In this document: piece by piece, positions 41,249 to 62,389 of the stretch
How positions within the stretch are numbered: the first letter of the stretch is position 1
How the letters are laid out: every line of letters begins with the position of its first letter
NCBI GenBank assembly: GCA_965208625.1
Contig: OZ242348.1
Location: 1,309,567-1,373,566, forward strand
Reading direction: 5' to 3'
Length of the DNA: 64,000 bases
Source of the DNA: Dehalococcoidia bacterium
GTDB taxonomy: Bacteria > Chloroflexota > Dehalococcoidia > Lucifugimonadales > Australimonadaceae
Notes under the pieces: model-generated
What the model was told of the DNA's origin: nothing
Seen by the model: the letters and a program-made list of their open reading frames with translations, nothing else
The model's database searches: none
Program-made: the position numbers and the translations under genes

Positions 41249-41305
41249 CGCCGCGCAGAAACCTCCCCGAAGGCCCGGTCTAGCTCGGTCATCCAAGGAG
41301 CGCAG

Positions 41306-42733: not shown

Positions 42734-42799
42734 CCGGTCGTTCAGAACCGAGGCGCGCCTGAGAGGCACGCCCAATCCGAATCAAGGGAGGGATCCAAG

Positions 42800-44047: not shown

Positions 44048-44095
44048 ACAGCCCCGCTCCGGGAGGAGCGGCTGCGGGCTGTGCAGGGCAAATAG

Positions 44096-45904: not shown

Positions 45905-45925
45905 GCTGAGCGAAGGGCCGATCGA

Positions 45926-47398
45926 TCACAGGTTCGGGAACGGCAGGATGTCCCCGTATTTCTTCATCACGCGCTGCCTGAGCTCTTTGGGGCTTCGGCT
46001 TACTCCCGGGAATTGGTCCCTGCGATGGAACGGTCTGACCGCGTAGTAGACCGCGAGGCTGTTGGTGTGGTCGCCGGACTCCTTCTTGTCGGGCCGCGCT
46101 GAGACCAGCGGGTCCAGTGGCGTGCTCCACATCCCTCTCAGGATCTCGATGTCGGTCTCCGGGTCGCAGCGCGTCGTCATGGCCCAGAGCACCTCTTTCA
46201 GGTCCTCCGGATCGATGTCCTCGTCAACGACGACGATCCAGCGTCCGTTGCGCGTGTTCGCCGCGGCGGCCATGGCGGCCTGCTTCGCATGACCGGGGTA
46301 CTGCTGCTTGATGGCGATAACCCGCATGTACGCGAAAGGCGTGCCCACTGCCACGACGTGCGAGACACCCGCGCGGGCAAGGTCGGCCGCGCCGCCGCGG
46401 CCGGCGCCCATGGGAAGACCTGTTTGTCGCGCGCCGGGCCACATCGGGGCCTGGCTCAGGATGATGGGGTTGTTGCGGAAGTAGACCGCCTTCACGCGGA
46501 TGACCGGCTGCGGTTCGCCGGTGCCGAGCGTGCCGCCGGAGTAGTAGCCGGGCCACTCCCCGAAGGGACCTTCATCCCGCGCCTCCTCCCACGGCGGAGG
46601 GACTTCGCCTTCGATGGCGATCTCCGCATGAGCAGGGATGGGCAGACCGGTGATGGGACCCTTGATGACGTCGACCGGCCTTCCGCGCAGGCCACCAGCG
46701 TGGTCCAACTCCGATTCTCCCCAGGGAGAGCGTCCGTGGGACGCCATCCACGTGAGCGGGTCGGTGCCGAAGGTAGCGACCACCGGACAGGCCTCGCCCT
46801 TCTCCCAGTAGCTGTTGCAGATAAGCCGGCCCTGCTGGCCGGGGCTCATCCAGAGCCCCAGTGTGTTCTTGTCGTGGACCTCCATCCGATAGGTGCCCAT
46901 GTTGACGTAGCCGCTCTCCGGGTCCTGGTTGATGAGCGAGTCGCCCGTGCCGATGTAGCGCCCGCCATCCGAGGCGTGGTACCGGGGAACGGGGAAGCGC
47001 CAGAGGTCGACTTCCTCGCCCTCCATCACGTTCTCCATCACGGGGCCGGCAGGAACCTCGTTCGGGGGAATCGGCTTGATCGCCCTGAGCCGCTGAGAGG
47101 CCAGCTCCGCCAGTTCGTCGCGGCTCTTGTCGACCGGTAACCCGAGCGCCAGCGCAGCCCGTTTGTACGACGCACCGACCAGCGACACCAGGCGGTAGCC
47201 CTCCGGGTACCCCTTCACCTTGTCGAAGATGAGCATGGGGGCATTCGGTATGGTTTCGGCTACCGCCTCAACGAGTGCCCCGAGCTCCTCATCCCAGTCG
47301 ACTCCTTCGATGACGTGGTAGTCATCGATCTCCTGACAAGCGGCCACGTACTCCTGCAGGCCGTCGAAGATCGGCCCGGTCGGTTCTGATGTCGTCAC
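45926..47398 (-). CDS. UbiD-family prFMN-dependent (de)carboxylase
   Basis: GGRYIGTG, NMGTYR, EGPFGEWPGYY, YPGHAKQA, VVVDEDID, WAMTTRCDP. Confidence 0.9.
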   Translation of the reverse strand: MTTSEPTGPIFDGLQEYVAACQEIDDYHVIEGVDWDEELGALVEAVAETIPNAPMLIFDKVKGYPEGYRLVSLVGASYKRAALALGLPVDKSRDELAELASQRLRAIKPIPPNEVPAGPVMENVMEGEEVDLWRFPVPRYHASDGGRYIGTGDSLINQDPESGYVNMGTYRMEVHDKNTLGLWMSPGQQGRLICNSYWEKGEACPVVATFGTDPLTWMASHGRSPWGESELDHAGGLRGRPVDVIKGPITGLPIPAHAEIAIEGEVPPPWEEARDEGPFGEWPGYYSGGTLGTGEPQPVIRVKAVYFRNNPIILSQAPMWPGARQTGLPMGAGRGGAADLARAGVSHVVAVGTPFAYMRVIAIKQQYPGHAKQAAMAAAANTRNGRWIVVVDEDIDPEDLKEVLWAMTTRCDPETDIEILRGMWSTPLDPLVSARPDKKESGDHTNSLAVYYAVRPFHRRDQFPGVSRSPKELRQRVMKKYGDILPFPNL

Positions 47399-47432
47399 GA
47401 GGTGCTCCTTTCAGCACTGGTGGTGCGAACAC

Positions 47433-48683
47433 TTACCGGTGGGTGCTGGTCGCCAGCTCGCGGGCCGCGTCGTTCTCCCAGTAGCGATGCCAGTCGACGG
47501 AAGAGGGGAGCACGATATCGTTCCGGACGTAGATGCCCAGGTTCTCGGAACGCTTCTCTGGGTCACGGATGACGTGGACCGGGTCCTGCCCCTCCTGTAC
47601 GTCGCGCACAGCCTTCAGCAGCATCCGTCTAGCCGCCGCGATGGCCATGTCCGTGTATCCAAGGTGCTCCGTGGTGCGGTTCTGGATGGCGCCTTCGCCC
47701 TGGGTGGCCCACGTATCGTGGACGACGAAGTTCTGCCCCATCCCGATGAACTCCCTGTTCTTCATGGACTCGCGGTCCTGCCGGTAGCGGTTCGACTCGT
47801 TGCGGATGAGGCGGAAGTCTTCACCGATCTCTTCGGAGCGGGCATTCTGCTGCGGACGTATGGGCTGCGTACGGTTGAACCGGATGCCGTAGCGCCAATG
47901 GTGCGTGTCGTCGATGGGAACGTGCCAGTTGATGCTGTACCCCTCGGCGTCGCCCGCCACCGCCGCCAGGTTGGGCATGACGAAATTCGTGACCCTTACG
48001 TAGCTGTTCTCCTCGTCCACTTTCCGCACCGCGTAGATGCGGATGCCGAAGTCCGTGTCCTCCAGTTCGAGGTGAGGCGCGGTAACACGGGCGTTCAGGG
48101 TCTGATTAAGATCGCCCGAGCGGCTCAGGCGGTGGAGGAACGAGAGGTGCTGGGGGTCGATGTTGCCTTCGTTGCCCTGGAGATAGTTGCAGTCCTGGAA
48201 CACCTTGTAGACGGAGCGCTGCCCAGGCGGCACGTCGAACGCTTCGTAGGGAGGCAACGACGGCGGTTCGCCGCCACCGAGGTAGGCGAAAACCAGATCG
48301 CCACGCTCAGCTACCGGGTAGGCCAGGTGCAGCACCTTGTCCTTGAAAGTGCTGCCTTCCGGTTCGCCGGGTTGCTCCAGACAGTTGCCGTGGATGTCGT
48401 AGAGCCAGCCATGGTAGAGGCACCTCAACCCTCCGTCCTCTATCCGGGCGTAGCTGAGGTCGGCTGCACGATGGGCGCAATGGATGCCAAGCAGGCCGAT
48501 GCGGTCGAACTGATCGCGGAAGAGTACGAGGTCTTCGCCGAGAAGGCGCACTGGAAGGGGGGCGCTACCCGGAAGAATCTCAGAGCTGAGCGCAACGGGC
48601 TGCCAGTAGCGGCGTATGAGCGCACCGCCGGGCGTCCCGGGACCAACCTGGGTCAGAAGGTCGTTCTCCTCGCGGGTCAGCAT
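47433..48683 (-). CDS. Rieske oxygenase alpha subunit (paralog of 39792-41078)
   Basis: Start MLTREENDLL. CAHRA...CLYHGW, EGNIDPQHLSFLH, EHLGYTD. Confidence 0.92.
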   Translation of the reverse strand: MLTREENDLLTQVGPGTPGGALIRRYWQPVALSSEILPGSAPLPVRLLGEDLVLFRDQFDRIGLLGIHCAHRAADLSYARIEDGGLRCLYHGWLYDIHGNCLEQPGEPEGSTFKDKVLHLAYPVAERGDLVFAYLGGGEPPSLPPYEAFDVPPGQRSVYKVFQDCNYLQGNEGNIDPQHLSFLHRLSRSGDLNQTLNARVTAPHLELEDTDFGIRIYAVRKVDEENSYVRVTNFVMPNLAAVAGDAEGYSINWHVPIDDTHHWRYGIRFNRTQPIRPQQNARSEEIGEDFRLIRNESNRYRQDRESMKNREFIGMGQNFVVHDTWATQGEGAIQNRTTEHLGYTDMAIAAARRMLLKAVRDVQEGQDPVHVIRDPEKRSENLGIYVRNDIVLPSSVDWHRYWENDAARELATSTHR

Positions 48684-48842
48684 GCTCCACCCCCAACGAC
48701 ATCGTGAGGTTACCCAGCGAAAGAAGCGCAAGCAAGTCGAGCCAGCGCATGGCGCTGCGAGAGGACTCCTGTCTCGCGCAGTTGTTACCGACTCTCTCGC
48801 GGCTTATGATGACGCCAACCTGGGTACCTTTGGAGTTGTCCT

Positions 48843-49958
48843 GTGAGCAGTGAGGGGTCCTCGCTCCAAGAGCTCCGTATCTCCGCCGACTCCCACATGG
48901 GCGAGCCGCCCGATCTCTGGGAGAAGGAACTTCCCCTGAAGTTCCGTTCGCGAGCCTTGCGCACCCACGAAAGGCCCTTCGAGACCAATCACCTTCTGCG
49001 CGCGGGTTGCTGGGACCCCTATGAGCGGCTGAAGGACCTCGCGCTGGATGGCGTCAGCGCCGAGGTGCTCTACCCGACCCTCGCCGTCCCGGCATGGCTC
49101 ATCGACGACCAGGAACTCCAGGAAGCACATCTGCGCGTCTACAACGACTGGCTGATCGACTTCTGCAGGGTAGCTCCACACCGCTACTGGGGATTGGGCA
49201 TGGTCTCGTTGTGGAACGTGGATCATGCCATCCAGGAGATGCAACGGTTCATCGATGCCGGGCTGCGGGGCGTCGACATCTGGATCGCGCCGCCGGAGAG
49301 CTTGCCATACAGCGACCAACACTACGAGCCCTTCTGGGCCGCCGCCGAGGAGCTTGGCGCGACGGTCAATATGCACATCAACGGACGCGCCGAGTCCCGC
49401 GAGCGCGACCCCGCAGGCATCCCCATACACTCGATCAATGGGCACAAGAACGACGCGATGAACTCGCTGCTGCACATCATCGCCTCCGGGGTGCTCGAGC
49501 GTCACCCGCGCCTGAACGTCGCGGTGGCGGAGGCAGGCGCGGGCTGGGTCCCCTTCTGGCTTCAGGAGGCCGACCACTACACGATGAGCCGCCGCAGCAC
49601 CCTGTCCATGCCGCCCAGCGAGTACTTTAAGCGGCAGGTCTACTGCACCTTCATCAGCGACGCCGTCGGCGCATATCTCCTGCAGGACTTCGGCCAGGAC
49701 AACTTCATGTGGTCCAACGACTATCCTCACCCCGCATGCACGTGGCCCGACTCCAATATCCTCATCCCCGAGGAGTTAGGAGGACTCCCTGCCGAGGTGC
49801 AAGAGAAGGTTGTCTGGCGCACGGCGGCCAGGGTCTACAACAATGGCGAGCCTCCTGCTCCGCCCGACCCGTCCGAGGACCGCACCGAAGTCGAGAACTG
49901 GCTGGAGCACCACCGGGACTTCGGAGCCAGCGCGCGTCCGAAACACCGCACCGCCTGA
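48843..49958 (+). CDS. Amidohydrolase family 2 protein
   Basis: ISADSH, WDPYERLKD, VNMHI, AEAGAGW, WSNDYPH. Confidence 0.9.
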   Translation: MSSEGSSLQELRISADSHMGEPPDLWEKELPLKFRSRALRTHERPFETNHLLRAGCWDPYERLKDLALDGVSAEVLYPTLAVPAWLIDDQELQEAHLRVYNDWLIDFCRVAPHRYWGLGMVSLWNVDHAIQEMQRFIDAGLRGVDIWIAPPESLPYSDQHYEPFWAAAEELGATVNMHINGRAESRERDPAGIPIHSINGHKNDAMNSLLHIIASGVLERHPRLNVAVAEAGAGWVPFWLQEADHYTMSRRSTLSMPPSEYFKRQVYCTFISDAVGAYLLQDFGQDNFMWSNDYPHPACTWPDSNILIPEELGGLPAEVQEKVVWRTAARVYNNGEPPAPPDPSEDRTEVENWLEHHRDFGASARPKHRTA

Positions 49959-50022: not shown

Positions 50023-50736
50023 ATGGCAACCACGAAGCGATGGGGCCGTGACCAGCTCTCCCCCGACGAACTGATGGACGGGCTCGAGGACATCCGGGCC
50101 GAATGGAAGCAGGGGCACCCTGCACGATCGAAAGCAACCACGATCGAGATGATTGCCGAGCGCAAACGCCGCGCCCACCAGGGCGGCGACGGCAACCACC
50201 GCTTCGAAGGCGAGCGCTACATCAACACCACCAACAAGGATGTGCGCCGCTTCCAGCTCCGCAAGCTCATCGACGAGGGTGGTCAGGACACCGTCGGCGG
50301 GCCTGTGCCCAGCCACCCCACGCTGAGCCGCTGGCACTCCGAGGAGTTCGGTCTTCCCAAGGAAGAGATCGACGCGCTGGAGAAGAGCGACTGGGCGCCC
50401 GAGGAACTCGTATCCAACGGCTGGTACTACTGGATGCACCGCACCGAGCCCTGGCCCGTCCTCCTGGGCAGCGCGCTGGTGGGCGAGGGCGAGAAGCGGC
50501 TCCCTGAGGTGCGAGAGCAGATGGTCCAGGACCTCGAGGAGACCAGGCAGCTCTACGAGAAGCTTGGCATCAAGGACATCGATCGGGCCATGCTCAATCA
50601 GCATGAGCACTCGCCTATCGGGGCAGACGCAGACCACGTCGTCTTCGGTGAAGACGTTACCCGAGCCTTCGTGGACACACCGGACCTGCAGGAGCGGCTG
50701 CGGCGGGTGTTCATCTTCAGGCTGCAACGCCGGTAG
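50023..50736 (+). CDS. Heme-oxygenase-like (PqqC/CADD-type) protein with candidate diiron ligands
   Basis: LIDEGG...PSHPTL, VGEGE, HEH...DADH. AAGGAG RBS. Confidence 0.6.
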   Translation: MATTKRWGRDQLSPDELMDGLEDIRAEWKQGHPARSKATTIEMIAERKRRAHQGGDGNHRFEGERYINTTNKDVRRFQLRKLIDEGGQDTVGGPVPSHPTLSRWHSEEFGLPKEEIDALEKSDWAPEELVSNGWYYWMHRTEPWPVLLGSALVGEGEKRLPEVREQMVQDLEETRQLYEKLGIKDIDRAMLNQHEHSPIGADADHVVFGEDVTRAFVDTPDLQERLRRVFIFRLQRR

Positions 50737-50838
50737 CCGGGGTCTCGTCTCACGGCGTATCTCGATGCGCCCCATCGTCAGCATGCGCTCACGCGTCATG
50801 CAGGCTCGCCGTCAACATAGCCACGCGAGGGTATAGCG

Positions 50839-51654
50839 ATGCTGAACCACCCCCCTTACAGCGCCGACGACCTGAAGGACCCACCCCTCCCGGGGCCTGA
50901 GTTCATCGAACTGCTCCACCGGCAGCGGGCGGAGCGGTACCCCGAACCGCCGCCGTTCTACCAGCTCCTCTACGACGGTTCTCTGACCCGGGACGACCTC
51001 CAGTTGTGGGCGAAGAACCATTACTACTATCTGGACCACGGCCTGCAGTTCAGCACCGCCGCGCTCTACGTCAAGAACAACGACGAGGCATCGCGCACGC
51101 ATGAACTGAGGAAACTCGTCAAGATCGAGGGTCGGGACATCGTGAACGACCTCGTCGGCTGGACAACGCCCGCCTACGAGGAGTTGTGGATGCGCTTCTG
51201 CGAGGGTCTGGGCCTCGAACGTGAGGAGGTTACGGCGTGGCGCAACTTCACCCGCTCCTACTTCGCCGTGTCCACGCTCTCCCTGTGCACGCGGTGGTGG
51301 GAGTGGTCATGGCTCGACGGCATCGCGGGGTTGTTCGCAAGCGACCTGCTGGCCAGGGACACCATGGGCAAGGCGGGCGAAGCCCTGCAGACACAGTACG
51401 GCATCCCGGCAGAGCACCTGGAGTTCTTCGACCGCTTCACCCAGGATGCGGAAGAAGACCTGGGCTGGGAGGAGTCGACGCTCGTGGAGTGGGCCTTTAC
51501 GACAGAGCGGCAACTCACCGCGGCCCGAGCATTCCGCTACCGGCTGGACATCGACTATCAGTACGTTCAGCCTGTCCACGCCGCGATCACCACGGGCGAA
51601 CTCCCCGTCCAGGTGCCCGTCTCTCTCTACGAAGAGGAGCCTCCCTCGGCCTAG
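50839..51654 (+). CDS. PqqC/TenA-like helical protein with degenerate metal ligands
   Basis: PFYQLLYDGSLTRDDLQLWAKNHYYY, ELWMRFCEGLGL, WLDGIAGL, YGIPAEHLEFF (PqqC-like). His ligands absent. Confidence 0.72.
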   Translation: MLNHPPYSADDLKDPPLPGPEFIELLHRQRAERYPEPPPFYQLLYDGSLTRDDLQLWAKNHYYYLDHGLQFSTAALYVKNNDEASRTHELRKLVKIEGRDIVNDLVGWTTPAYEELWMRFCEGLGLEREEVTAWRNFTRSYFAVSTLSLCTRWWEWSWLDGIAGLFASDLLARDTMGKAGEALQTQYGIPAEHLEFFDRFTQDAEEDLGWEESTLVEWAFTTERQLTAARAFRYRLDIDYQYVQPVHAAITTGELPVQVPVSLYEEEPPSA

Positions 51655-51759: not shown

Positions 51760-51789
51760 TTGACACCCTCCAGTTTGGAGAGTCATACT
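51760..51789 (+). promoter_or_regulatory. Putative sigma70 promoter of the GPP34-P450 gene with dyad in the spacer
   Basis: TTGACA-18 nt-CATACT. Imperfect dyad TGAC..CTCCA-GTT-TGGAG.GTCA. Confidence 0.5.
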
Positions 51790-51854
51790 GGCTACAAGTG
51801 CAGCAGGCGTAAGTGGCCCTAGAGTATCGCGATGGTGCACAGGAACAGGGGCTG

Positions 51855-53897
51855 ATGACTCTTTCCACAGAGGGTGTGACGACCCAGACGCTGAGCTTGC
51901 CTGAAGAGCTCATCCTGATGCTCCTCAACGAGGAGAGCGGCTACTTCCACCAGGTGCCCGGCTGGGACCTGAACTGCACTGTCGCCGGCGCCGTACTCGC
52001 GGAACTCTCCCTCATGGGCCGCATCGACACGGACGTGGAATCCCTGTTCATCGTCGACCGGAGTGAGACGGGCGACCCCGCACTGGACCCTATCCTCAAG
52101 GAGATCGCGGACGAACCCGTCCGGCACAACACCCAGTACTGGATCGAACGACTCGCGCCCCGCGCAGAGGCCATCGTCGATCTGACGCTGGACCGCCTCG
52201 TTGACCTGAACATCCTGGAACACCATGACGGCGAGTTCTGGACGTTGTCCCGCACCGTCGTGCAGGCAGAACTCTCCAACACCTCCTCAACAGGCACAGC
52301 GGCCCAATTCGTCAGGACGCGCATCAGCAAGGTAATCCTCAACAACGAGATTCCCGATCCGCGAGACGTCATCATCATCGCCCTCATCGATACATGCGAC
52401 GTCTTCCGCTTCATGTTCCAACTCGACGACGAGATAGAGCAGCGCATCCAGGCCATCTGCAGGATGGACCTGATCGGCCGGTCCATCGCCGAGGCAGTCT
52501 CTCAGAACATCGCCGGTCCGCTGCTTCAACGTTCCGCCTTCACCAAGAAGATCCCGACCGTTTCGCTGCGCAAGATGCTGTTCAGTCCTCACCTTCGCAG
52601 TGGGAATATCGCCGCGCTCTTTGCGAACCTCGCAAAGGAGTACGGGCCGGTGTTCAAGATACATCCACCATTCAGGAAGCCGATGATCTTCCTCGCCGGG
52701 ACGGACACGAACCACTGGGTGCACCGGCACGGGCGCATGTACCTGAGAGCGAAGGACTACTTCTCCGACTTCGAGAAGGTCTACGGCGCGAACGGAGTGA
52801 TGCCTTCGATGGACGGCGCCGATCATTTCCGGCTTCGTAAGTCCATGTCACCGGCGTACTCCCGCGGGAGACTGGAAGGACAGTTGAACATCCTCTACCG
52901 CCATGCCCGGAACCACATGGCCGGCTGGAATGTTGGAGACGCCTACCCTGCGACGAGCATGAGCAGGCGGATGATCAACGCGCAACTCTCGCCGCTCTTC
53001 GTCAGCGTCGATTCCCAGGACATCTTCGACGACCTGGCGAAGTACAAGGAGCGGGCGCTCCTCACGCACATCATGAAGGCTCTCCCCAAGTTCATGCTCC
53101 GCACTCCGGGCATGAAACGCCGGGCAAAGGCCGTGGATACCCTCTTGGAACGGGTCCAGAGCGTCCATACACCAGCGCAACGGGCCGGTTCCCCGCGGGA
53201 CCTCGCGGACGACTGGCTCAGCCTGCACGCAAGCGATCCGCAGTTCGTGCCGGAGACGACCCTGCGCTTCCAGCTGTCGGCGGCGTTGATCGCCAGCGTG
53301 TACCTTGGCGACGCGTTCAGTTTCGCGCTCTACGCCATGGCGTCGCAGCCCGATCTCTACCGGGAGATTCAGCGTGAAGCCGATGCTCTCTTCGATAACG
53401 GCGACCCCGACGGCGAGGAATTCACCCTGCAGGCGATAGACGTCACGCACCGCTTCCTTATGGAGACCGTGCGCATATACCCCATCGTCCCGATGTCCAT
53501 ACGGAACGTGATGAATACGTGCGTGGTGGAGGACTACGAACTGCCGGTGGGGTCACAGGTCTTCATCGCCACGACCGCGACGCACTACATGAGCGACATC
53601 TTCCCCGAACCTTTCTCCTTCGACATCGATCGCTACAAGGCGCCACGCAACGAGCACCTCAGTCCCGGGTACGCCCCCTACGGGCTGGGCACGCACACCT
53701 GTCTCGGCACCCGGTGGATGGAGCTGCAGTTGGCCATCAACGTGCTGATGATCGCGCACTATTTCAACATCGAAGTGTTCCCCTCGAACTACAAGCTCAA
53801 GTTCAACCCGATCCCGTCGATGAAGCCGAGCAAGAAGCTGAAGTTCCGCATCGCCGAGCGGCGGCGTGAGATACCCCTGGTCGCCTGGCAACACTGA
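51855..53897 (+). CDS. GPP34 (GOLPH3/Vps74)-domain cytochrome P450 fusion
   Basis: N-terminal LSLPEELILMLL, AGAVLAEL..GRI, TGDPALD (GPP34). C-terminal ETVR (ExxR), FDIDRY and heme loop PYGLGTHTCLG. Confidence 0.88.
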   Translation: MTLSTEGVTTQTLSLPEELILMLLNEESGYFHQVPGWDLNCTVAGAVLAELSLMGRIDTDVESLFIVDRSETGDPALDPILKEIADEPVRHNTQYWIERLAPRAEAIVDLTLDRLVDLNILEHHDGEFWTLSRTVVQAELSNTSSTGTAAQFVRTRISKVILNNEIPDPRDVIIIALIDTCDVFRFMFQLDDEIEQRIQAICRMDLIGRSIAEAVSQNIAGPLLQRSAFTKKIPTVSLRKMLFSPHLRSGNIAALFANLAKEYGPVFKIHPPFRKPMIFLAGTDTNHWVHRHGRMYLRAKDYFSDFEKVYGANGVMPSMDGADHFRLRKSMSPAYSRGRLEGQLNILYRHARNHMAGWNVGDAYPATSMSRRMINAQLSPLFVSVDSQDIFDDLAKYKERALLTHIMKALPKFMLRTPGMKRRAKAVDTLLERVQSVHTPAQRAGSPRDLADDWLSLHASDPQFVPETTLRFQLSAALIASVYLGDAFSFALYAMASQPDLYREIQREADALFDNGDPDGEEFTLQAIDVTHRFLMETVRIYPIVPMSIRNVMNTCVVEDYELPVGSQVFIATTATHYMSDIFPEPFSFDIDRYKAPRNEHLSPGYAPYGLGTHTCLGTRWMELQLAINVLMIAHYFNIEVFPSNYKLKFNPIPSMKPSKKLKFRIAERRREIPLVAWQH

Positions 53898-53917: not shown

Positions 53918-54961
53918 TTACAGGGGCTTGCGCGCCAGAAAGCAGTACAACGGCGTGAAGACCCCGGCCCTGCCTCCTGCGACATAGGCATTGGCCGTAC
54001 CGTCCATCAGTCTGACGACGTCGGCGGACCCCTTCGGGAACACGCCCAGCGCCTCGGCCAACCGGGATACCCCGGTGTACGCCTTGCGGCCCAGCGGAGT
54101 CCTGCGCAGGGTGTTGCCCAGCGTGCCGCCCCTGGTCTCCATAGGCCGGTACCACGGGGGGGAGGAGTGTGACCCTCCTCCATCGAGAGCACGGTCCACG
54201 CCTTCGATGACCTGGAACCCCGCCGATTCGAGCGCCCGGTTCACCTCGTTCATCGTTGCGATGTCCTTGAGCGCGATGCCCTGCATCAGGTCGTTCTTCA
54301 TGGACTGATGCCGACTGTCGCTGGGATCGAACCTGTCCGTCATGCACATCTCCTGGCCCCAGAAAAGGGCGCCAGGTTTCAGCACGCGGTAGATCTCCGC
54401 AAACGCGCCCGCCTTGTCCGGCGCATGGCACGTCGATTCGATCGCGTAGCCCCGGTCGAACGCGTCGTCAGGGACAACGCTCATGTCCATGAAACTGCAC
54501 GCGATGTAGTCGACCATGTGATCGAGTCCCGCCTCAGCAGTCAACGACCTCGCCCTCTCCAACTGGACTTCGCTGCTATTGATCCCGACGACCCTGACTC
54601 CCGCCTCCGCTGCGACGCGGCGCATGGGGCCACCGACCCCGCAACCGACGTCGACCACCGTCATGCCTTCCTGCAATTCCAGTTTGGCGATCATGAGCCG
54701 CTGGTGCCGCGCCTGGGAGTGCTCCAGGCTCTCGCGAGACGACAGCGGCGCGAAGTGGAGGGACTCGCTCCAACCGAACACCATGAACTCATTGCAGAGG
54801 TCGTAGTATTCCCTGACAGTTTCGACGTGGTCGTAGCCCGCCGGACCGGCGTCCTCCACGTTCGCTCTGTCCATCCACCTGTCGAAGTGCTTGACGCGGT
54901 GGCGGACGTCCGACCCGCGGTACGCGGCCTTCAGCCTGTTGGGTAGTTCGCGAAGTTGCAT
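53918..54961 (-). CDS. Sterol 24-C-methyltransferase-like SAM methyltransferase (ERG6/SMT family)
   Basis: SMT regions: YYDL...GWSESLHFA, VDVGCGVGGP, YAIESTCHAP, YRVLKPG..., WYRPM and C-terminal FTPLY..LARKP. Confidence 0.88.
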   Translation of the reverse strand: MQLRELPNRLKAAYRGSDVRHRVKHFDRWMDRANVEDAGPAGYDHVETVREYYDLCNEFMVFGWSESLHFAPLSSRESLEHSQARHQRLMIAKLELQEGMTVVDVGCGVGGPMRRVAAEAGVRVVGINSSEVQLERARSLTAEAGLDHMVDYIACSFMDMSVVPDDAFDRGYAIESTCHAPDKAGAFAEIYRVLKPGALFWGQEMCMTDRFDPSDSRHQSMKNDLMQGIALKDIATMNEVNRALESAGFQVIEGVDRALDGGGSHSSPPWYRPMETRGGTLGNTLRRTPLGRKAYTGVSRLAEALGVFPKGSADVVRLMDGTANAYVAGGRAGVFTPLYCFLARKPL

Positions 54962-54972
54962 GAGCATTCCTT

Positions 54973-57456
54973 CTACGACGAGCCCTGTCCCCGCTCGTGG
55001 CTCTGATGTATGCCCTCTATCGCCACGTCGAGCTCGGCCCACTGGCGCTCGACCATGGAGCGCAACCGCATGTTCTGGTACGCGCCCCAGACCACCATCG
55101 CTGGCAGCACCAGCAGCACGGAGACGACCAGGGAGTATACGATGGTGATGGTCGCCGTGATGCCGAACTGTTGAGAAGCAAGCAGCGGCGAGGCGATCAG
55201 CACTCCGAATCCCAGCGCGGTCGTCATCGCGGAACCCAGCAGCGCCGAACCCGTGGTCGCGAGCGTCCGTATCGCCGCACTCTCCGGGTTGCGCGAGCGG
55301 GTGAATTCCTCACGGTATCGATGGATCACGTGGATGGTGTAGTCCACGCCAATCCCTATCGAGAGCGCCGTGATGATCGACGTGACGAGTGAGTACGGGA
55401 TACCCAGCAGCGCCATCGTGCCCAGCACTGAGATCAGGACGAGCACGATGGGCCCGACCGCGACGACCGCCAGCGCCGGTTGGCGCGCCGTCAGCCAGAA
55501 GAAGACAGCGAGGACGGTGAGGGCCGCCGCGATAGTGGTGCTGATCGCCTCCGTCTGACGATCTGTGATCGCGTCCGTAACCCCGATCGAGACGACGGTC
55601 TCCGAAAGCACCGTGAGGGCGGAATCGTCTCCAGGCCAGAGCGCTTCAAGGTCGCCCTGCAGCATCTTGGTTGCTCCCGGATCGTTCGAGTAGGTTGGAA
55701 ACTGCAACAGGATGGTGTCGATGCCGTTCGGATCGTTGACCAGGCCGTGGGTGACTGCGGGTTCCCTCTCTCCGAGCTTGTCCAGGATCTCCTGCATCAA
55801 GGCCGGATCGAGCTGCACTCCCGAGGAAGCTTCGCCGAAGAGCGCCGCAAGCTCACGGTCGTAGTTGTCGCCGGGCTGCCCGCTGTCGGTGGTCCAATCG
55901 TTGAGGAGCGACTCGTACGACGCCAGGAGCGGCCCTGCTGCTGCATCCGGACGGCGCTGCTCGTCCTGGAACGCGACCCTGAGGTCTTGCAGGTTAAGGA
56001 GGGTGCGGGTCTCCGTAGCCTCGGCCTTCACCAGCACACTGGCCATCTCCGTCGAACCGCCGACGGTTGCGTCCAGCGTCTTCATGTCAGCCACGATGGT
56101 CCCGCCCCTGGGAAGAACGTCCCGGATGCTGAACTCCGACTTGAGGTCGGTAGCCGCGAATCCCAGCCCAACCGTGATTGCAACGACGACGATGATGTAC
56201 GGCGCCGGCTGACGCGTAACTCTCCTTCCGAGCACCTCTGCTAGCCGCGGGATGCCGGGCAGCGCATTCGAAAGTGGGCGAGGCTGCCGCAACGTGCCGC
56301 GTGCCTCGCGACGCCGGTCGAGGATGGTCCGCGCAGCGGGGACCAGCGTCAGCATCACGATCAGGCTCAACCCCACACCCATCCCTGCGACAACGCCGAA
56401 GTCTCCGATCACACCTATCGGCGAAAACAGGGTCGCCAACAGGCTCACAATCGTGGTGACTGCGGCGAGCATCAGCGGGACCGCGACGTTCCGCAGACCG
56501 ATCTGCACCGCTCGGGCGACGGGTTCGCCTTCGAGCCGCTGCTCCCGGTAGTGAGAGATTGCCTGGATCGCATAGTCCACCGTGAGGCCGATGATGATGA
56601 CGGGCACCATCGCAGTGAGCGAGCTGGGAGGGCCTATCACGCCGAGTCCGTCCGGGCCAAGCCAGCCCTCGGCGCCGACAACCCACATGATCACGACGAT
56701 CAGACCCAGCAGCGTCAGCAACATGTCCGACAGGGTGCGTGTGAAGAGCAGGAGCAGACCGGCGATCAGCAAGAGCGCCAGCCCGATCAGTGGCCCCATC
56801 CCCTCCTCAGTGGCTTTCTTGTAAGCATCCTCGATGACCGCCGACGACAGGCTGCTCACACGCGACGCACCCTCGTCCGCTGCAGCCAACTCGCTGATCC
56901 TCCGTTCGGCATCGTCAACGCGCTCGTCTCCCGTGTCGCGCAGGCGCACGATGGCAATCGCAACGAGCGTGCCGTCGGTGTCGGTGCCAGTCATCTCAGC
57001 GAGCGCCTCCCCTACTCCGGGGATGTCGCGTGCAGAGTCGATCTGTTCCTGCGTGACCGACTCGAAACTGTCCACTTGGAGCACGGCGCCGATCAGCGAC
57101 GAGGGTGCAACGACAGAGGTTCCAGGCGCCAACAATTCACTGACGCCCGGGGCCCGGACAATCTCATCGAGCAGGCTATCCATCTGGGAGAGGCCGCCGG
57201 GTGTGAGCGCCTCCCCGCGAAAGAGGAGTGTGACAACAATCACTTCGCCGGAGTCCCCGAACCGGTCATCTATCTCTTGTGTTGCCTCAGCGATGGGATG
57301 GCCAGGAGGGAGGAAGGCAACACTTGCGCCTTCCGTCGGCGGCAGACGTCTATCCGCCCCCGAAACCATTACGACGGTAACGATGAGGAGGACGAGGAGC
57401 GTGAACCACGGGCGAACCGTGACCAGCCAACTCAGCCTGCCGAGTATGTTGCTCAT
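54973..57456 (-). CDS. MMPL/RND-family lipid (sterol/hopanoid-type) transporter
   Basis: Two RND halves with GLTVDYAIQ and GIGVDYTIH motifs and two large extracytoplasmic loops. Confidence 0.88.
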   Translation of the reverse strand: MSNILGRLSWLVTVRPWFTLLVLLIVTVVMVSGADRRLPPTEGASVAFLPPGHPIAEATQEIDDRFGDSGEVIVVTLLFRGEALTPGGLSQMDSLLDEIVRAPGVSELLAPGTSVVAPSSLIGAVLQVDSFESVTQEQIDSARDIPGVGEALAEMTGTDTDGTLVAIAIVRLRDTGDERVDDAERRISELAAADEGASRVSSLSSAVIEDAYKKATEEGMGPLIGLALLLIAGLLLLFTRTLSDMLLTLLGLIVVIMWVVGAEGWLGPDGLGVIGPPSSLTAMVPVIIIGLTVDYAIQAISHYREQRLEGEPVARAVQIGLRNVAVPLMLAAVTTIVSLLATLFSPIGVIGDFGVVAGMGVGLSLIVMLTLVPAARTILDRRREARGTLRQPRPLSNALPGIPRLAEVLGRRVTRQPAPYIIVVVAITVGLGFAATDLKSEFSIRDVLPRGGTIVADMKTLDATVGGSTEMASVLVKAEATETRTLLNLQDLRVAFQDEQRRPDAAAGPLLASYESLLNDWTTDSGQPGDNYDRELAALFGEASSGVQLDPALMQEILDKLGEREPAVTHGLVNDPNGIDTILLQFPTYSNDPGATKMLQGDLEALWPGDDSALTVLSETVVSIGVTDAITDRQTEAISTTIAAALTVLAVFFWLTARQPALAVVAVGPIVLVLISVLGTMALLGIPYSLVTSIITALSIGIGVDYTIHVIHRYREEFTRSRNPESAAIRTLATTGSALLGSAMTTALGFGVLIASPLLASQQFGITATITIVYSLVVSVLLVLPAMVVWGAYQNMRLRSMVERQWAELDVAIEGIHQSHERGQGSS

Positions 57457-57508: not shown

Positions 57509-58585
57509 TCATTCTACAGTCTCGCCAGATGTGACCGGGAGTGCCATATCAGGAGCGCACGGCTCGGGATAGAACTGGGTGCAGTAGGCGCGAAAGGTCA
57601 TGATCTCGCCGTCGGAGCGAGCGAGGCGTGGCAGGGAGCGGTACCGCTTGCGGCTCCAGATGATCACATCCCGGCGAACGTCCTGCTCCTGCTGCGGCGA
57701 GATGAACCTGTTCATCATCGGGGCGCGCCACCCAACCGGGAGGAACCCCAAGCCCGATATCCAGCGCTTCGGGTTGCGGATCTCCCGCACCTGCGAGGCC
57801 AGCGACAGATCGATAAGCGTGCCGTCGACAGGCGTCGCCAGCACCCACAGGCGCATATCCATGCCGATGGACTTCTCACGGATCTCCACGAACGAATATC
57901 CCAGCCCGAAGATATGAGTGTTGGTGGAGATGTCCAGGTTGAAGGGTAAGGCTCCGGCTATCTTGTAGTTGCGCCTGAAGTCGAAGTCGCTCCTGAGGTA
58001 AGCCCCGTCCACCGATACGTCCCCGGCGCGGTCCACGCTGCCGTACCCGTGGACGTAGCGCAGGTGGGCCAGGTCCACCGAGTTCTCCGTCGTCTCCTGG
58101 GGATGGCCGGGAAAGCGGAGGGTGCGTATCGAGATGGCGCTCCAGCCGGTCTGGTCTGCAAGGTCAGTGGGCAGGTGCCAATGAGCCGCCCGTCCCTCGA
58201 TCCCCCACCAGCCGAAGATGAGGCCGGCTATCTCCTGTGTCTCGAAGACGCGCAACCGCGCAGCCCTGGGCGGGGGAGCAAAGGGAGTGGCGACGCACTG
58301 GCCGGTTGCATCGTACTCGAAGCCGTGGAAGGGGCAGACGAGCCGACCGTCACGCACGCGCCCTCCGGCGTCGGGCCCCAGGTCGGAGCCGAGGTGCGGG
58401 CAGTAGGCCTCGGCAACGCAGACGCGCTCGTTCTCATCGCACCAAACAACGATGTTCTCCCCCATCCAGGTCTTCCAGATGAGCCTCGCCTTTTGCATGG
58501 CCTTGCGGCTTCCGATGAAGTACCAGCCCTCGGGAAACGGGGAAGGCAACGGGACGTTGTCTGGCTCTACTTGCCTGGTTGTCAT
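57509..58585 (-). CDS. Steroid-type Rieske oxygenase (Neverland/DAF-36 cholesterol 7-desaturase or KshA-like)
   Basis: PFPEGWY, AYCPHLG, CPFHG, ENSVDLAHLRYVH, and C-terminal DVIIWSRKRY..PRL...DGEI..FR.YC.QFY typical of the KshA/Neverland clade. Confidence 0.82.
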   Translation of the reverse strand: MTTRQVEPDNVPLPSPFPEGWYFIGSRKAMQKARLIWKTWMGENIVVWCDENERVCVAEAYCPHLGSDLGPDAGGRVRDGRLVCPFHGFEYDATGQCVATPFAPPPRAARLRVFETQEIAGLIFGWWGIEGRAAHWHLPTDLADQTGWSAISIRTLRFPGHPQETTENSVDLAHLRYVHGYGSVDRAGDVSVDGAYLRSDFDFRRNYKIAGALPFNLDISTNTHIFGLGYSFVEIREKSIGMDMRLWVLATPVDGTLIDLSLASQVREIRNPKRWISGLGFLPVGWRAPMMNRFISPQQEQDVRRDVIIWSRKRYRSLPRLARSDGEIMTFRAYCTQFYPEPCAPDMALPVTSGETVE

Positions 58586-58701: not shown

Positions 58702-60198
58702 TCATGTTTCAGGCAGGGATGTTGGCCAGCGGCTGCCTTCAGGCGAAGCCTCCTCTTCGGCGTCTTCCACTCTCATCAACAGGGCCGGCAGGATGGCGAC
58801 CAGAGCAAGGAACCCCGAGATCATGAAGAGGTTCTGGAACACAGTCACTCCCGCTTCGATCAGGGGAGCCTCGGTCTCCTCGAACGTCGAGCCGATCGTC
58901 ACGTCAGCGGTCAAGCTGTAGAAGCGCTCGATACCCCAGGCGGACAAGGCCGCGAGCCCCAGCGCCATCCCCACCATGCGCGACGCGGTGATCAGTGACG
59001 CCGCCGCGCCCCAATAGTGACTGGGTGCTGCGCTCAACGCGCTGACGCCGATGGGCGGGATGACCAGCCCGAACCCCAGACCTGCCATGACCAGGGGCAT
59101 AGTCAGCCTGAGTTCCTCCACTTCCGTCTCCCAGCCGCTCATGAACAGCAGACCCGTTCCTATGAACGCAAGGCCGGTTATGCACACCGTCCTTACTCCC
59201 GTCCAGCGTAGGATGTAGCCGCCAACCACCGCCCCCACCGGAATAGCGGCCGTAAGGCGGACCAGGTGAAGGGCGCTCTCCCAGGCCCTCTTCTCCATGA
59301 CAGTGCCGGCCATGAGCGGCACAGCCACCAGCGAGATGATCAGGGCAACCCCCACCAGGAACTGGGTGATGTTGGAGGACAGGAACGCCCTGGACGTGTA
59401 CAGGAAGGATGCCAGTAGAGGCTGGACGGTGCGTCGCTCCAACAGGACCAGCAGGAGAACCAGGCCGACCCCCAGGGCTATCAGGACAAACGGGAAGAGG
59501 GACTCTCCGGAGAAGATGGCTCTCTGAGACAGGCCGATACTGAGAACGGTGAGGGCCGCCCCGAGCACAAGCGCTCCGAAGTAGTCCATCTTCGCAGCAG
59601 GATTGGCACGGTTCGGCAGGACGGCCAGGAGCGCTATCAGGAAGAGGCTCTGCGGTATGTCGAGCCAGAATATCCACCGCCAGCCCAGCAACTCGATGAT
59701 GGCTCCCCCATAGAGGGGCCCCAGCACCGACCCGGCTTCAGCCGAGGCTGCCACAAGTCCAATCGCCAGTCCCCTTTTCTCCGGCGATACAGCGGCCACA
59801 GCCATGGCGAGGCCTATGGGGACCGTGGCGCCGCCTCCGAAAGCCTGGACCACCCTAGCGGATACCACCCACTCGAAGTTTGGCGCAAGCGCCACGAACG
59901 CCGACCCGATGGAGAAGACGATCAGCGCTGCGTGGAACATCCTGACGCGGCCGTAGACGTCGGACAGACGCCCCGCCAGCGGCATCGCCACGGTGTAGCT
60001 GATCAGGTACCCCGTTACGATCCAGGACGCCCTGTCCAGGTCCGTAAGGGGGATCTCCAGGTCCACCATCACGGCAGGCAGGGCGGCGACCACCACTGTC
60101 TGGTCAAGGGCAGTCGAAAACACCCCCAGGCAGATGATCCCCAGCACAACCGACTGGGAAGATCTCAGCGATTGGAGGCGAGACCCGGCAGTGTTCAC
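58702..60198 (-). CDS. MFS transporter, 14-TM DHA2 type (P55/Rv1410c-like)
   Basis: LDQTVVVAALP, WIVTGYL.SY...MPL.GRLSDVYGR, GSVLGPLYG, WRWIFW. Confidence 0.85.
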   Translation of the reverse strand: MNTAGSRLQSLRSSQSVVLGIICLGVFSTALDQTVVVAALPAVMVDLEIPLTDLDRASWIVTGYLISYTVAMPLAGRLSDVYGRVRMFHAALIVFSIGSAFVALAPNFEWVVSARVVQAFGGGATVPIGLAMAVAAVSPEKRGLAIGLVAASAEAGSVLGPLYGGAIIELLGWRWIFWLDIPQSLFLIALLAVLPNRANPAAKMDYFGALVLGAALTVLSIGLSQRAIFSGESLFPFVLIALGVGLVLLLVLLERRTVQPLLASFLYTSRAFLSSNITQFLVGVALIISLVAVPLMAGTVMEKRAWESALHLVRLTAAIPVGAVVGGYILRWTGVRTVCITGLAFIGTGLLFMSGWETEVEELRLTMPLVMAGLGFGLVIPPIGVSALSAAPSHYWGAAASLITASRMVGMALGLAALSAWGIERFYSLTADVTIGSTFEETEAPLIEAGVTVFQNLFMISGFLALVAILPALLMRVEDAEEEASPEGSRWPTSLPET

Positions 60199-60947
60199 GA
60201 CCCTGAGGCTGTCTCTGGAAGTTGGATGTCGACAGGGGCGTTGATCTCACTGATGGTTACCAGCCGCGTCGTTTCCGGGGCGTCCTCGTCGTAGAGCCTG
60301 CCGTCTATCCTGAGCTGCCGCAGGTCATACGAGACCTCGTCGACCCAAACGGATAACGTGATCGCATGACCGGGGTCCACATCCGTGATGAGGCCCGACA
60401 TATCCTCGGAAACGATATCCCCATCTACACGGATAGCCTGGCCGCCTCCTACGGACTCCCGCCCGGTGATGGCGACGTTCTCGATGATGGGCAGTATCTC
60501 GCTCAACGTGACGCCTATCCCTCCGAAGTTGAAGGGGACCTGGTCCAGCGGCAGGGGAAGCCACAACGCGTCTGAGGAGAACTGTATGTACGCCTGCTCT
60601 CCCACCGCCAGCATGCCGACCTCCACGAATCCAAGGCCGGGGTTCACCAGCTCCACCACCATCCTGAAGCTGTCGGGTGTTTTGACCTCTCCTTCCACAC
60701 TCTTCAGGGCCATCTCGAAGAATTTCGCGCCCGATTCCGTCTCGTCGATCATCTGGAACTTCGCCGTCGACAGTGCAGCCAGCTGTTCCGCCGCACCGGA
60801 GAGCACCTCATCCACCGACAACTCGGGGGTCGGCGTGGGTTCTGACTCACACGCAGCTGCCAGGAAGAGGAACCCAAACGCCAGCACGGTGATCGAGATT
60901 CCGCGACCCACGGCCATTCGGATGGATGGAGCGAAAGCAATCATCAT
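60195..60947 (-). CDS. LppX/LprAFG-family lipoprotein
   Basis: Lipobox LAAAC, beta-sheet lipid-carrier pattern (EGEVKTPD, GRESVGG, VWVDE, INAPVDIQLP). ATGA-type overlap with the MFS gene. Start is approximate. Confidence 0.75.
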   Translation of the reverse strand: MMIAFAPSIRMAVGRGISITVLAFGFLFLAAACESEPTPTPELSVDEVLSGAAEQLAALSTAKFQMIDETESGAKFFEMALKSVEGEVKTPDSFRMVVELVNPGLGFVEVGMLAVGEQAYIQFSSDALWLPLPLDQVPFNFGGIGVTLSEILPIIENVAITGRESVGGGQAIRVDGDIVSEDMSGLITDVDPGHAITLSVWVDEVSYDLRQLRIDGRLYDEDAPETTRLVTISEINAPVDIQLPETASGS

Positions 60948-61006
60948 GTGAGGCACGGTACCACCCGCAAAAGACGCCGGGCAAGCACCCTCAGGAGCAT
61001 TCAGCG

Positions 61007-62389
61007 CTACGCCTTTCTGAACCGCCAGCCGTACATGATGCTCCCGTAGTAGTTGAACGACCGCCTCGCCGCAGGGTCGTCGAAGGGATAGTCGGCGCCC
61101 ATCTGTCTCGCAGTGGCGAGCCCGGAGACGAAGCAGGTCTCCTGGCTGTTGACCAGGGTGTGAGCACCGCAGTGCCACGTTCGGCTCTTGCCCTGGATGC
61201 AGCGGAACAGATTGACGAGCACTACGACGTGGCGCACGTCATGGACGATGTGCTGGAACCACCAGCGCTTCACAATCTTCCGCTCATCGATGGGACTGAT
61301 CGGGTTGTAGGTCACCAGGCACGGTTTGTCAGACCGGTTAGCCCATGGCTGCTGGTTGTGCATGATGTACGTGATCTCGTAGTTGTCCGGTCTCGCGCCG
61401 TACTGCTCGATGTGATTGCTCCGAGTGGTCAGGGCCTTCACCTCGTTGTCGGGAAGCACAGAGGAATCTGAGTGGACGACCGTGTGGTTGTGCAGTTCGC
61501 TCTCGTAACGTATCGAGGAGAGGATGTAGCGTTCGAGGAACGTGGGTTTGTCGAGGATCATCAGCGTCTGGTTCGCGTTGCATGCGAAGATCACGTCGTC
61601 GAACGCCTCCTGCACACCGTCGTGGTCCTCGACAACGACGCCATCCGTCTGCCGGTACACCTTGCGGACAGGTCGGCTCAGGTAGATCTTGTCCCGGAAG
61701 TCTGCCGACAGGTTCTCGTAGATGCGGCGCGTTCCCTGGTCCCACGTCTGCATGGGCGTAGCGGTCTCGATATCGAAGAACTCGAGATACCTCGAGAAGA
61801 GCGCCGCAGGCATATCGAAGACGTTCGTCGCCATCAGGAAGTTGACGAACATCGGCTTCAGTACCTTGTACCTGAAGTCTCCCGAGAACCCTCCCAGGTT
61901 CAATACCGTCCCCATGCTGACGTAGTTGAACGGGTTGAGCGCGTTCAGACACTTGGACTGCGTACGCGTCAGCCAGCCGAACCAGCGCAGACGCTTCAGC
62001 AGCCGTTGGAACTTCGCGATCTCTTGTTGCAGCTGTTCCCTGATGTCGGAATCGAAATCGTGGGCGTAGACCTGGTCGCCGTACTTCACGCTGTAGCTGA
62101 ACCTGGTATCGACCAGTTCGATGCCGAACTTCTGCATCAGCAACAGGATGTGGTCATATACGGATGGGATGCAGGCGGTGACGGAGATGTCGAACGGGAT
62201 CGAGCTCCCGTCATCCTGCGGCATATCGGCTGTGACCGCGTTGCCGCCGATCTGTGCCTGGGCCTCGAACAGCCGGAAGTCGAAGCGGTCCGGGTGATGG
62301 TGCAGCGCCCACGCGGCGCCCAGTCCTGAAACACCTCCACCCACGATGGCGATACGCCGCGGCGTTGTCCCTGTCACCCCGGTTGCCAT
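61007..62389 (-). CDS. FAD-dependent oxidoreductase (COG2907-like; lipid desaturase/amine oxidase superfamily)
   Basis: IAIVGGGVSG, FEAQAQIGGNA, FDDVIFAC, IQGKSRTWHCGA..NSQE..FVSG. Confidence 0.8.
   Translation of the reverse strand: MATGVTGTTPRRIAIVGGGVSGLGAAWALHHHPDRFDFRLFEAQAQIGGNAVTADMPQDDGSSIPFDISVTACIPSVYDHILLLMQKFGIELVDTRFSYSVKYGDQVYAHDFDSDIREQLQQEIAKFQRLLKRLRWFGWLTRTQSKCLNALNPFNYVSMGTVLNLGGFSGDFRYKVLKPMFVNFLMATNVFDMPAALFSRYLEFFDIETATPMQTWDQGTRRIYENLSADFRDKIYLSRPVRKVYRQTDGVVVEDHDGVQEAFDDVIFACNANQTLMILDKPTFLERYILSSIRYESELHNHTVVHSDSSVLPDNEVKALTTRSNHIEQYGARPDNYEITYIMHNQQPWANRSDKPCLVTYNPISPIDERKIVKRWWFQHIVHDVRHVVVLVNLFRCIQGKSRTWHCGAHTLVNSQETCFVSGLATARQMGADYPFDDPAARRSFNYYGSIMYGWRFRKA

Follow-up and report, generated by a model that had tools for sequence, protein, structure and literature searches.

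What does a bacterial cytochrome P450 gain from a GOLPH3/Vps74-type domain at its N-terminus, and on what kind of molecule would such a protein act? The question is raised by a GPP34-P450 fusion gene (GPP34_L type) in a 64,000-nucleotide stretch of a Dehalococcoidia bacterium genome (assembly GCA_965208625.1, contig OZ242348.1, positions 1,309,567 to 1,373,566 of the forward strand), the whole of which is called the window here and whose own numbering is used. The gene runs on the + strand from a probable ATG at 51855 to the stop at 53897 and encodes 680 amino acids. The account judged probable is that it belongs to a cassette for tailoring and transporting host sterols, in which the GPP34 domain acts as an adaptor for an anchorless P450. 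The sterol or lipid context of the fusion is well supported by gene linkage; what we infer is the class of substrate, the direction in which it is moved and the role of GPP34 as an adaptor.

The uninterrupted + strand frame extends over 51813..53897 and gives 694 amino acids when counted from a GTG; residue numbers below follow this frame. The ATG at 51855 (M15) appears likelier to be the true start than the GTG at 51813, because homologues are 675–677 amino acids long and their alignment mostly begins at residue 15, a purine-rich AGGGG lies immediately 5' of this ATG, and a promoter-like TTGACA-18 nt-CATACT (51760..51789, + strand) sits in the 200-nucleotide gap before the gene, with 10 of 12 hexamer positions matching, a consensus match that does not imply function. 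An earlier sequence-only reading had described a single open reading frame (ORF) with a GPP34-like N-terminus followed by a full P450. Pfam confirms this, PF05719 and PF00067 both scoring above their cut-offs, and the part singled out by that reading, 51855-52560, is the GPP34 portion opening at the ATG of M15. The absence of a transmembrane anchor and of a fused reductase, also noted there, holds as well: the highest 19-residue Kyte-Doolittle mean is 1.73 and falls inside a buried core helix of a confident model, and neither Pfam nor NCBIfam finds a reductase, ferredoxin or other domain. No signal peptide or hidden anchor was seen by hydropathy and in the model, no dedicated predictor having been used, and residues 1-23 are polar and disordered.

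Both Pfam domains occur in 120 of 120 protein clusters among the matches listed, at identities of 74–93%, and all 76 genome loci kept for comparison match across both domains. No stop or frameshift separates the two parts: a DNA contig from a public sequencing run, which may be the source sample, spans the junction (51929-53063) with 0 differences and no indels reported. The two-domain homologues, the 76 loci and this contig together rule out an assembly or annotation artefact. Contigs from RNA libraries also match short pieces of both domains, with 1–7 differences in one library (X15) and identical pieces in two others (X16 and X17); the latter two are probably one data set filed twice, DNA carry-over is possible and most of the gene is uncovered, and these matches are not counted as transcription. 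The fusion is the only P450 of its own genome, which is a single contig of 3.30 Mb and 95.8% complete.

The architecture itself has a published name. Ferreira et al. (Microbiome 2025;13:4, PMC11706023) describe GPP34_L as GPP34 plus P450 in 656 of 663 long forms; the long form is limited to symbionts of sponges, drawn from many phyla, and its expression is seen in a metatranscriptome of Aplysina. The window protein is a member of this family, the N-terminal GPP34, the C-terminal P450, the length of about 675 amino acids and the spread over many phyla all matching that description. The earlier remark that no characterised example was known is correct in the biochemical sense; the architecture itself was published in 2025 with 656 proteins (PMC11706023). 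The article also reports that GPP34 is fused, in rare cases, to Rieske proteins and that P450 genes can stand next to short GPP34 genes, a Rosetta-stone hint; its account of flanking genes concerns the short form only. The proposal made there is that the GPP34 proteins of symbionts bind phosphatidylinositol 4-phosphate (PI4P) and so serve escape from phagocytosis. The reading given here differs from the published one in that the PI4P pocket is found to be lost and a sterol-type cassette is found around the gene. Among open-access papers and bioRxiv, no paper linking GPP34 or GPP34_L to sterols was found. A sponge habitat also fits the window by its records: four DNA data sets sharing its sampled words (shares 0.59–0.63) are labelled sponge metagenome, and near-identical genes occur in metagenome-assembled genomes (MAGs) with isolate names from sponge studies; identity to a MAG labelled SAR202 is 99%. 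These are labels only.

The surroundings of the fusion were compared in a one-genome-per-species scan, which found 198 relatives, 76 loci being kept for neighbour analysis; crude gene calls were clustered within 10 kb of the fusion, itself called as one ORF in 70 loci. By this clustering, a pump of the MMPL/sterol-sensing type accompanies the fusion in 52 of the 76 loci, a KshA-like Rieske oxygenase in 50, a sterol-type methyltransferase (SMT) in 48 and a flavin adenine dinucleotide (FAD) oxidase in 39, with any other neighbour family reaching at most 13. Searching with the window proteins by tblastn gives 53 for the pump, 60 for the Rieske oxygenase, 51 for the SMT and 45 for the FAD oxidase. 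Adjacency is kept through rearrangement, the recurrent orders in gene-order shorthand being ArFsm (9 loci), Fsmr..a (8, the order in the window), Fmr (7), Fsm (5) and Fm (5), besides others. By record title, 55 of the loci belong to Chloroflexota (Dehalococcoidia, SAR202) and 21 elsewhere: Binatia (6), labels of Thermodesulfobacteriota or Deltaproteobacteria (4), Acidimicrobiia (3), Latescibacterota (2), Arenicellales (1), Thermoanaerobaculia (1) and unlabelled records (4). The fusion proteins of the 76 loci are 66–99% identical, which across several phyla fits horizontal spread.

In the window all four partners lie on the - strand downstream of the fusion. A sterol C-24 methyltransferase-like gene (53918..55042), convergent with the fusion, matches Sterol_MT_C at E 6e-16, above cut-off, and CMAS at E 5e-19; its true start probably lies later than that of the called frame, the homologue median being 345 amino acids. 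Then follows an MMPL/HAE3-type resistance-nodulation-division (RND) transporter with a sterol-sensing domain (54973..57456; MMPL E 1e-42, Sterol-sensing E 5e-12, Patched E 1.5e-11), whose NCBIfam matches, all below cut-off, are HAE3 (E 1.5e-60), HpnN (E 2e-29) and BstA (E 8e-9). The KshA-like Rieske steroid oxygenase (57509..58585; KshA_C E 1.6e-19, Rieske E 1.2e-16) has as its best match in the Protein Data Bank (PDB) a 3-ketosteroid 9alpha-hydroxylase (E 2.7e-22) and reaches the SdmA model at E 9.5e-8, far below cut-off. The fifth core gene encodes an FAD oxidoreductase of the amine-oxidase family, LkcE-like (61007..62389; Amino_oxidase E 2e-14, LkcE E 5e-30).

The lipid on which such a set would act has then to come from somewhere. 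The one full-length cyclase of the genome is a squalene-hopene cyclase, with 755 bits on TIGR01507 (above cut-off) and 240 bits on the oxidosqualene cyclase (OSC) model (cut-off 851), and no match to squalene epoxidase (PF08491) was found in this genome. Among the 30 other carrier genomes none reaches the OSC cut-off, absence in a MAG not being proof: one stands at 702.7 bits on the OSC model, 14 are at hopene-cyclase level (225–275 bits) and 15 have no cyclase match. Since the genome has no OSC or squalene epoxidase of its own, the lipid is probably host-derived, and the cassette substrate would probably be a lipid that the cell does not make, most simply a host sterol. A short second match to the C-terminal part of squalene-hopene cyclase, with an in-frame TAG (C1:491956-492120 on the genome contig), may be a gene remnant.

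Some of the 30 carriers hold extra long GPP34 genes. At L083:6500-14365 (genome G003) a second fusion is flanked on one side by an MMPL pump with a sterol-sensing domain and on the other by the OSC-like gene of 702.7 bits (cut-off 851), which a squalene epoxidase follows. This second fusion shares 57% identity and the Tyr-Leu type of I-helix with the window protein, and CYP51 heads its solved relatives (E 6e-21). Among the 30 carriers, sterol synthesis is plausible at this locus only. At L085:7511-14373 (G017) a 34%-identical fusion with a canonical Asp-Thr I-helix adjoins a sterol reductase of the ERG4/ERG24 family. The same locus also holds a PhyH dioxygenase, an acyltransferase_3 protein and an EryCIII-like glycosyltransferase, a set that may serve sterol acylation or glycosylation. 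A third extra long GPP34 gene (L084) has only a luciferase-like monooxygenase nearby. In G026, GPP34 matches were placed at L086:3053-5194 and L086:14721-17048, yet no Pfam hit is obtained there at E 1e-5; the coordinates or frames may be off.

Sterol clusters of sponge symbionts have been described before and carry OSC/SMO, ERG11, ERG24, SMT, sdmA and sdmB (Brown et al., Nat Commun 2023, PMC10070321, Supplementary Data 1); the text of that article names no P450. The window cassette shares with them the combination of an SMT and a Rieske oxygenase in sponge symbionts, but lacks OSC, ERG24 and sdmB, has a Rieske protein nearer KshA than SdmA, and has an SMT of a divergent clade. Membership in those de novo synthesis clusters was considered and is ruled out, the window's own genome having neither OSC nor squalene epoxidase and none of the 30 carriers reaching the OSC cut-off.

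The methyltransferase qualifies what may be methylated. According to a preprint by Brown and Welander (10.64898/2025.12.19.695621), functional SMTs all keep a Region I of GWGxxFHF, a Region II of DxGxGxxGP and a Region III Glu. METHYLTRANSFERASE is divergent: Region I of the window enzyme reads GWSESLHF, with G86 and F89 replaced, and Region II (DVGCGVGGP) and Region III (YAIESTCHA) are kept. Among 49 cassette SMTs, Leu replaces F89 in 44 and the canonical GWGQSFHF is found in 4. Given this departure in Region I, the substrate or the methylated position may differ from C-24 of desmosterol-type sterols, and the enzyme may perhaps act on something other than an ordinary sterol side chain.

The N-terminal part of the fusion has the GPP34 fold. 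The domain (51897..52502, + strand; residues 29-230) matches PF05719 at E 2.1e-30 with 106.7 bits (cut-off 29.1), covering profile positions 1-199 of 201. Modelled alone it reaches a mean predicted local distance difference test score (pLDDT) of 79.1, and Foldseek places the model with GOLPH3 (9qpq_B, E 2.8e-8; 3kn1, E 1.3e-7) and also Vps74, the next entry following at E 0.086. A structural search against representatives gives Z 17.1 to both 2zih_A (rmsd 2.7 over 193 residues) and 3kn1_A (rmsd 2.5 over 187 residues), and only Z 3.9 for the next chain. These matches to GOLPH3/Vps74 uphold the earlier observation of a GPP34-like N-terminus. With GOLPH3 and Vps74 (PDB 3KN1, 9QPQ, 2ZIH) the domain shares the fold and a projecting beta-hairpin, formed in the model by strands 135-138 and 142-145 and aligned to GOLPH3 residues about 186-197, which mediates oligomers in those proteins. 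It differs from them in an identity of only 18–22%, in its fusion to an enzyme, in its acidity and in its occurrence in a bacterium without a Golgi or COPI context.

The pocket that makes GOLPH3 a PI4P reader is replaced. In GOLPH3 this pocket is lined by W81/R90 and R171/R174, and mutating them abolishes the binding of PI4P (Wood et al., 2009, PMC2806290). A single-sequence GPP34 query against the PDB aligned the first 100 residues only, and a profile was needed; a profile of 24 GPP34 domains was aligned to GOLPH3 residues 54-274 in native numbering (E 5.5e-5 to 9.6e-5), the numbering being checked at W81, R90, R171, N172, V173 and R174. At the four pocket columns the window protein has V, A, E and V. 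The W81 column holds V in 22 of 23 fusions, with a conserved Trp three residues past it, and the R90 column holds A, V, I, C or M in 23 of 23. The R171 column is E or D and the R174 column I or V in every one of the 23, at a moderate alignment posterior (6-8 of 10), and the ten residues ahead of R171 are deleted in the fusions relative to GOLPH3. The domain is also acidic (pI 4.4, with 18 K+R against 37 D+E) and so carries a charge ill-suited to electrostatic attachment to anionic membranes; the P450 domain has a pI of 9.4 and is basic. As judged from these residues, the GPP34 domain would not be a PI4P reader of the GOLPH3 kind and docking via PI4P is unlikely; a docking or lipid hand-over role for it is plausible.

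A short stand-alone GPP34 protein is present in all 30 fusion-bearing genomes and in the window's own genome (C1:2384677-2385270). The frames are mostly 217–246 amino acids (up to 311) and score 132–166 bits on PF05719, above the fused domain. The own short form keeps the R174 equivalent only, of the four pocket residues, and its neighbours are housekeeping or unnamed genes, which are uninformative. As the short form is found in every carrier, a pairing of long and short GPP34 forms is conceivable.

The C-terminal part has the features expected of a haem-thiolate enzyme. The P450 domain (52596..53837, + strand; residues 262-675) matches PF00067 at E 8e-36 with 124.2 bits (cut-off 22.8), and a Foldseek search with it returns P450 BM3 at the top, together with CYP184A1, CYP51 and CYP3A4, at E about 1e-17 and a target-normalised TM of about 0.8. 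Over 69 aligned sequences neither the ExxR motif (E551, R554) nor the thiolate C630 varies, and haem binding is therefore expected; in the haem-binding loop YGLGTHTCLG (53679..53708, + strand) G624, G626, H628 and G632 are each kept at 90% or above. The best solved sequence relatives include CYP51 and CYP120 (E 1e-15 to 1e-12) as well as taxadiene hydroxylase, enzymes that act on isoprenoids and sterols. In a library of 1.84 billion representatives, many full-length fusions of 650–690 amino acids share only 25–44% identity with the window protein, and stand-alone P450s reach about 30–34% at the nearest, one such cluster being labelled CYP120 of Herpetosiphon.

Oxygen-activating P450 monooxygenases carry an acid-alcohol pair in the I-helix, within the motif A/G-G-x-D/E-T; where the pair is missing, P450s commonly catalyse something other than plain hydroxylation or draw on a group of the substrate. 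The I-helix centre of the window protein is atypical: it reads A494-S-V-Y497-L498-G-D500 (53292..53312, + strand), with a one-residue deletion and Tyr-Leu in place of Asp/Glu-Thr, so that in the alignment with taxadiene hydroxylase ASVYLG stands against ASYDTT. The YLGD is invariant in 71 close homologues. A wider alignment comprised the window protein and 48 full-length fusions drawn from representatives at 50% identity, the 14 stand-alone relatives of alignment A2 being left out. In 8 of these 49, namely the window protein and seven others (P0122, P0125, P0127, P0129, P0130, P0133 and P0156), the deletion is combined with Tyr or Asn for Asp and with loss of the usual Thr, and most remaining fusions read AG(L/I)DT, the usual acid-alcohol pair. 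Ordinary monooxygenation is therefore not assured for the window protein.

Known P450s help to place the fusion. With CYP51 and CYP120 it shares a His two residues before the haem Cys, a trait of those families. Orthology to CYP51 was examined and is ruled out by an E of 1e-15 at best over a partial span and by the Tyr-Leu I-helix with its deletion, where CYP51 has a His-Thr motif; identity is below 20% in the structural alignment, and the window protein has an extra N-terminal domain of 250 amino acids. Moreover 29 of the 30 carriers are without a plausible OSC and would therefore lack a 14-methyl sterol to demethylate. P450 BM3 (CYP102A1) is likewise a soluble bacterial P450 with a second domain in one chain. 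Unlike in BM3, the partner domain of the fusion is N-terminal and has no flavin, iron-sulfur or other redox motif, and it therefore cannot supply electrons.

The two domains are joined by a helical linker (52503..52595, + strand; residues 231-261) of short helices with pLDDT 68-95, whose mean column conservation is 0.78, against 0.80 for the GPP34 domain and 0.83 for the P450 domain. A full-length AlphaFold2 model built on a 69-sequence alignment has a mean pLDDT of 90.7 and a predicted TM score (pTM) of 0.87, with the I-helix at residues 481-511, and this pTM suggests that the domains would stand in a fixed arrangement. A two-chain test of P450 residues 251-694 against GPP34 residues 24-250 gives weak support, with a score of 0.57 against a best of 0.00 among 3 controls; at least 84% of contacts are shared between runs, the partner pLDDT is at least 73, and no interface was reported. 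The mark used in this test is reached by 116 of 157 solved complexes and by 2 of 215 mismatched pairs, and scores of 0.60 or below include 18 of the 157 solved complexes and both of the mismatched pairs that pass.

Three other accounts of the locus have to be set against these observations. The one already in print (Ferreira et al., 2025) has symbiont GPP34 proteins, the P450 form among them, released into sponge cells, where they bind the PI4P of phagosomes and stop maturation, the P450 being an unspecified helper. The restriction of the family to sponge symbionts and its expression in the Aplysina metatranscriptome (PMC11706023) agree with this, as do the true GOLPH3/Vps74 fold and the retention of a short GPP34 in 30 of 30 carriers, although the short form could have a role of its own. 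For the fusion, the idea has to contend with the four pocket residues replaced in 22-23 of 23 proteins and the ten-residue deletion before R171, with the acidic domain, and with an N-terminus that has no signal-like segment, and it leaves the conserved methyltransferase, Rieske oxygenase and pump unexplained. In a term search of PMC11706023, 'sterol', 'pocket', 'R90', 'W81', 'R171' and 'signal peptide' did not occur, and no residue or signal-peptide analysis came to light there. Taken together, these points make the effector account improbable for the long form. A different possibility is that the enzymes serve a lipid of the bacterium itself, such as a hopanoid, a carotenoid- or retinoid-like compound or a polyprenol, and that the 'sterol' labels reflect family resemblance. 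The hopene cyclase of the own genome would fit, as would the hopanoid transporter HpnN being the best named NCBIfam relative of the pump after HAE3, the departure of the SMT in its sterol-binding Region I, and the CYP120 label of the nearest named stand-alone P450 relative, CYP120 being a retinoic acid hydroxylase. Yet 15 of the 30 carriers have no match to a hopene or oxidosqualene cyclase (with the caveat on MAGs given above), the Sterol_MT_C, sterol-sensing and KshA_C domains all lie above their Pfam cut-offs, and the paralogues adjoin an OSC-like gene, a squalene epoxidase and an ERG4/24 reductase, which leaves this account quite unlikely, if a little less so than the effector.

Catabolism of sterols is the remaining alternative: a CYP125-like P450 and a KshA-like oxygenase would open host sterols as a carbon source, with the MMPL protein importing them. 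P450s start sterol side-chain degradation in actinobacteria, the Rieske protein has KshA as its best solved relative (E 2.7e-22, as above), and the genome has no sterol synthesis of its own. Against this, the neighbour with the tightest linkage is a methyltransferase of biosynthetic type, genes for beta-oxidation, KstD or ring cleavage do not recur across the 76 loci, and the paralogues adjoin genes of synthesis (cyclase, epoxidase, ERG4/24 reductase), so that catabolism appears the most improbable of the three.

There remains the host-sterol cassette with an adaptor-borne P450. Several observations weigh against it as well. The cassette SMT departs from Region I residues kept in all working SMTs, the I-helix of the P450 lacks the acid-threonine pair used in oxygen activation, and gene clustering over the 76 loci finds no ferredoxin or reductase conserved beside the cassette. 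The cassette is incomplete in many loci; the counts come from crude gene calls, in which 5–6 of 76 fusions were not called as one ORF. In NCBIfam the pump falls far short of the HpnN and BstA cut-offs and the Rieske protein of that for SdmA, and the acidity of the GPP34 domain disfavours electrostatic docking on anionic membranes. With these points counted, the cassette would most likely work as follows. The GPP34_L protein would be a soluble haem-thiolate P450, one enzyme of a horizontally spread cassette of sponge symbionts. Its partners would be the divergent SMT, the KshA-like Rieske oxygenase, the FAD oxidase and the MMPL/HAE3 pump with its sterol-sensing domain. Together these would take a sterol-like lipid, oxidise and methylate it and move it across a membrane, the P450 domain contributing a single oxidation. 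For the GPP34 domain a non-catalytic role is probable, that of an adaptor which would hold the P450 at the membrane or at the transport machinery, or present the lipid to it, and would do so by means other than the PI4P pocket of GOLPH3. This retains one half of what the sequence-only reading had proposed, a lipid or sterol P450 without an anchor, in keeping with the neighbours and with CYP51, CYP120 and taxadiene hydroxylase as kin; its other half, membrane docking or lipid hand-over by the GPP34 domain, is plausible only.

The window holds further genes around the core set. Between the Rieske and FAD oxidase genes lie two local neighbours, found in 12 of the 76 loci each, the permease only in close relatives: a DHA2-type efflux permease of the major facilitator superfamily (58702..60198, - strand) and an LppX/LprAFG-like lipoprotein of a lipid-carrier fold family (60195..61178, - strand; E 1.5e-5, 25.4 bits against a cut-off of 24). 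The stretch directly before the fusion, 50023-51654, encodes one protein of 237 amino acids that neither Pfam nor NCBIfam matches, and a TenA/PqqC-like one; only 7 of 76 loci have them. Farther upstream and unrelated to the cassette, the block at 41078-49958 has an ABC solute-binding protein and permease between two UbiD-family decarboxylases, together with a LigXa-like Rieske oxygenase and an amidohydrolase_2 protein; it is shared with the closest relatives only and looks like a locus of aromatic-compound catabolism. Elsewhere, L020:10040-13565 carries two GPP34-P450 genes on the same strand, about 2.8 kb apart, with one called gene between them.

A bolder extension of the host-sterol cassette can be put forward tentatively, and as a whole it is rather doubtful. 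Symbionts of many phyla would share a mobile cassette by which host sterols are taken up, remodelled and returned or kept; the GPP34 pocket, turned hydrophobic, would handle lipid or dock the protein, and the Tyr-Leu I-helix subfamily would carry out something other than ordinary hydroxylation, for example a redox-partner-free step on an already oxygenated sterol. If this were true, bacteria without sterol synthesis could make part of the unusual side-chain-methylated or oxidised sterols that are credited to sponges and used as animal biomarkers.

The fusion is one of the few gene families reported to be specific to sponge symbionts, and in the accessible literature its sole published reading is host manipulation through PI4P. 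If it is a sterol enzyme, GPP34_L and the bacterial sterol methyltransferases, two published signatures of sponge symbiosis, would belong to one cassette. Symbionts that do not synthesise sterols would then edit those of their host, which bears on the attribution of sponge sterols and of 'sponge biomarker' steranes. The sterol reading would also offer a first testable job for a bacterial GPP34 domain.

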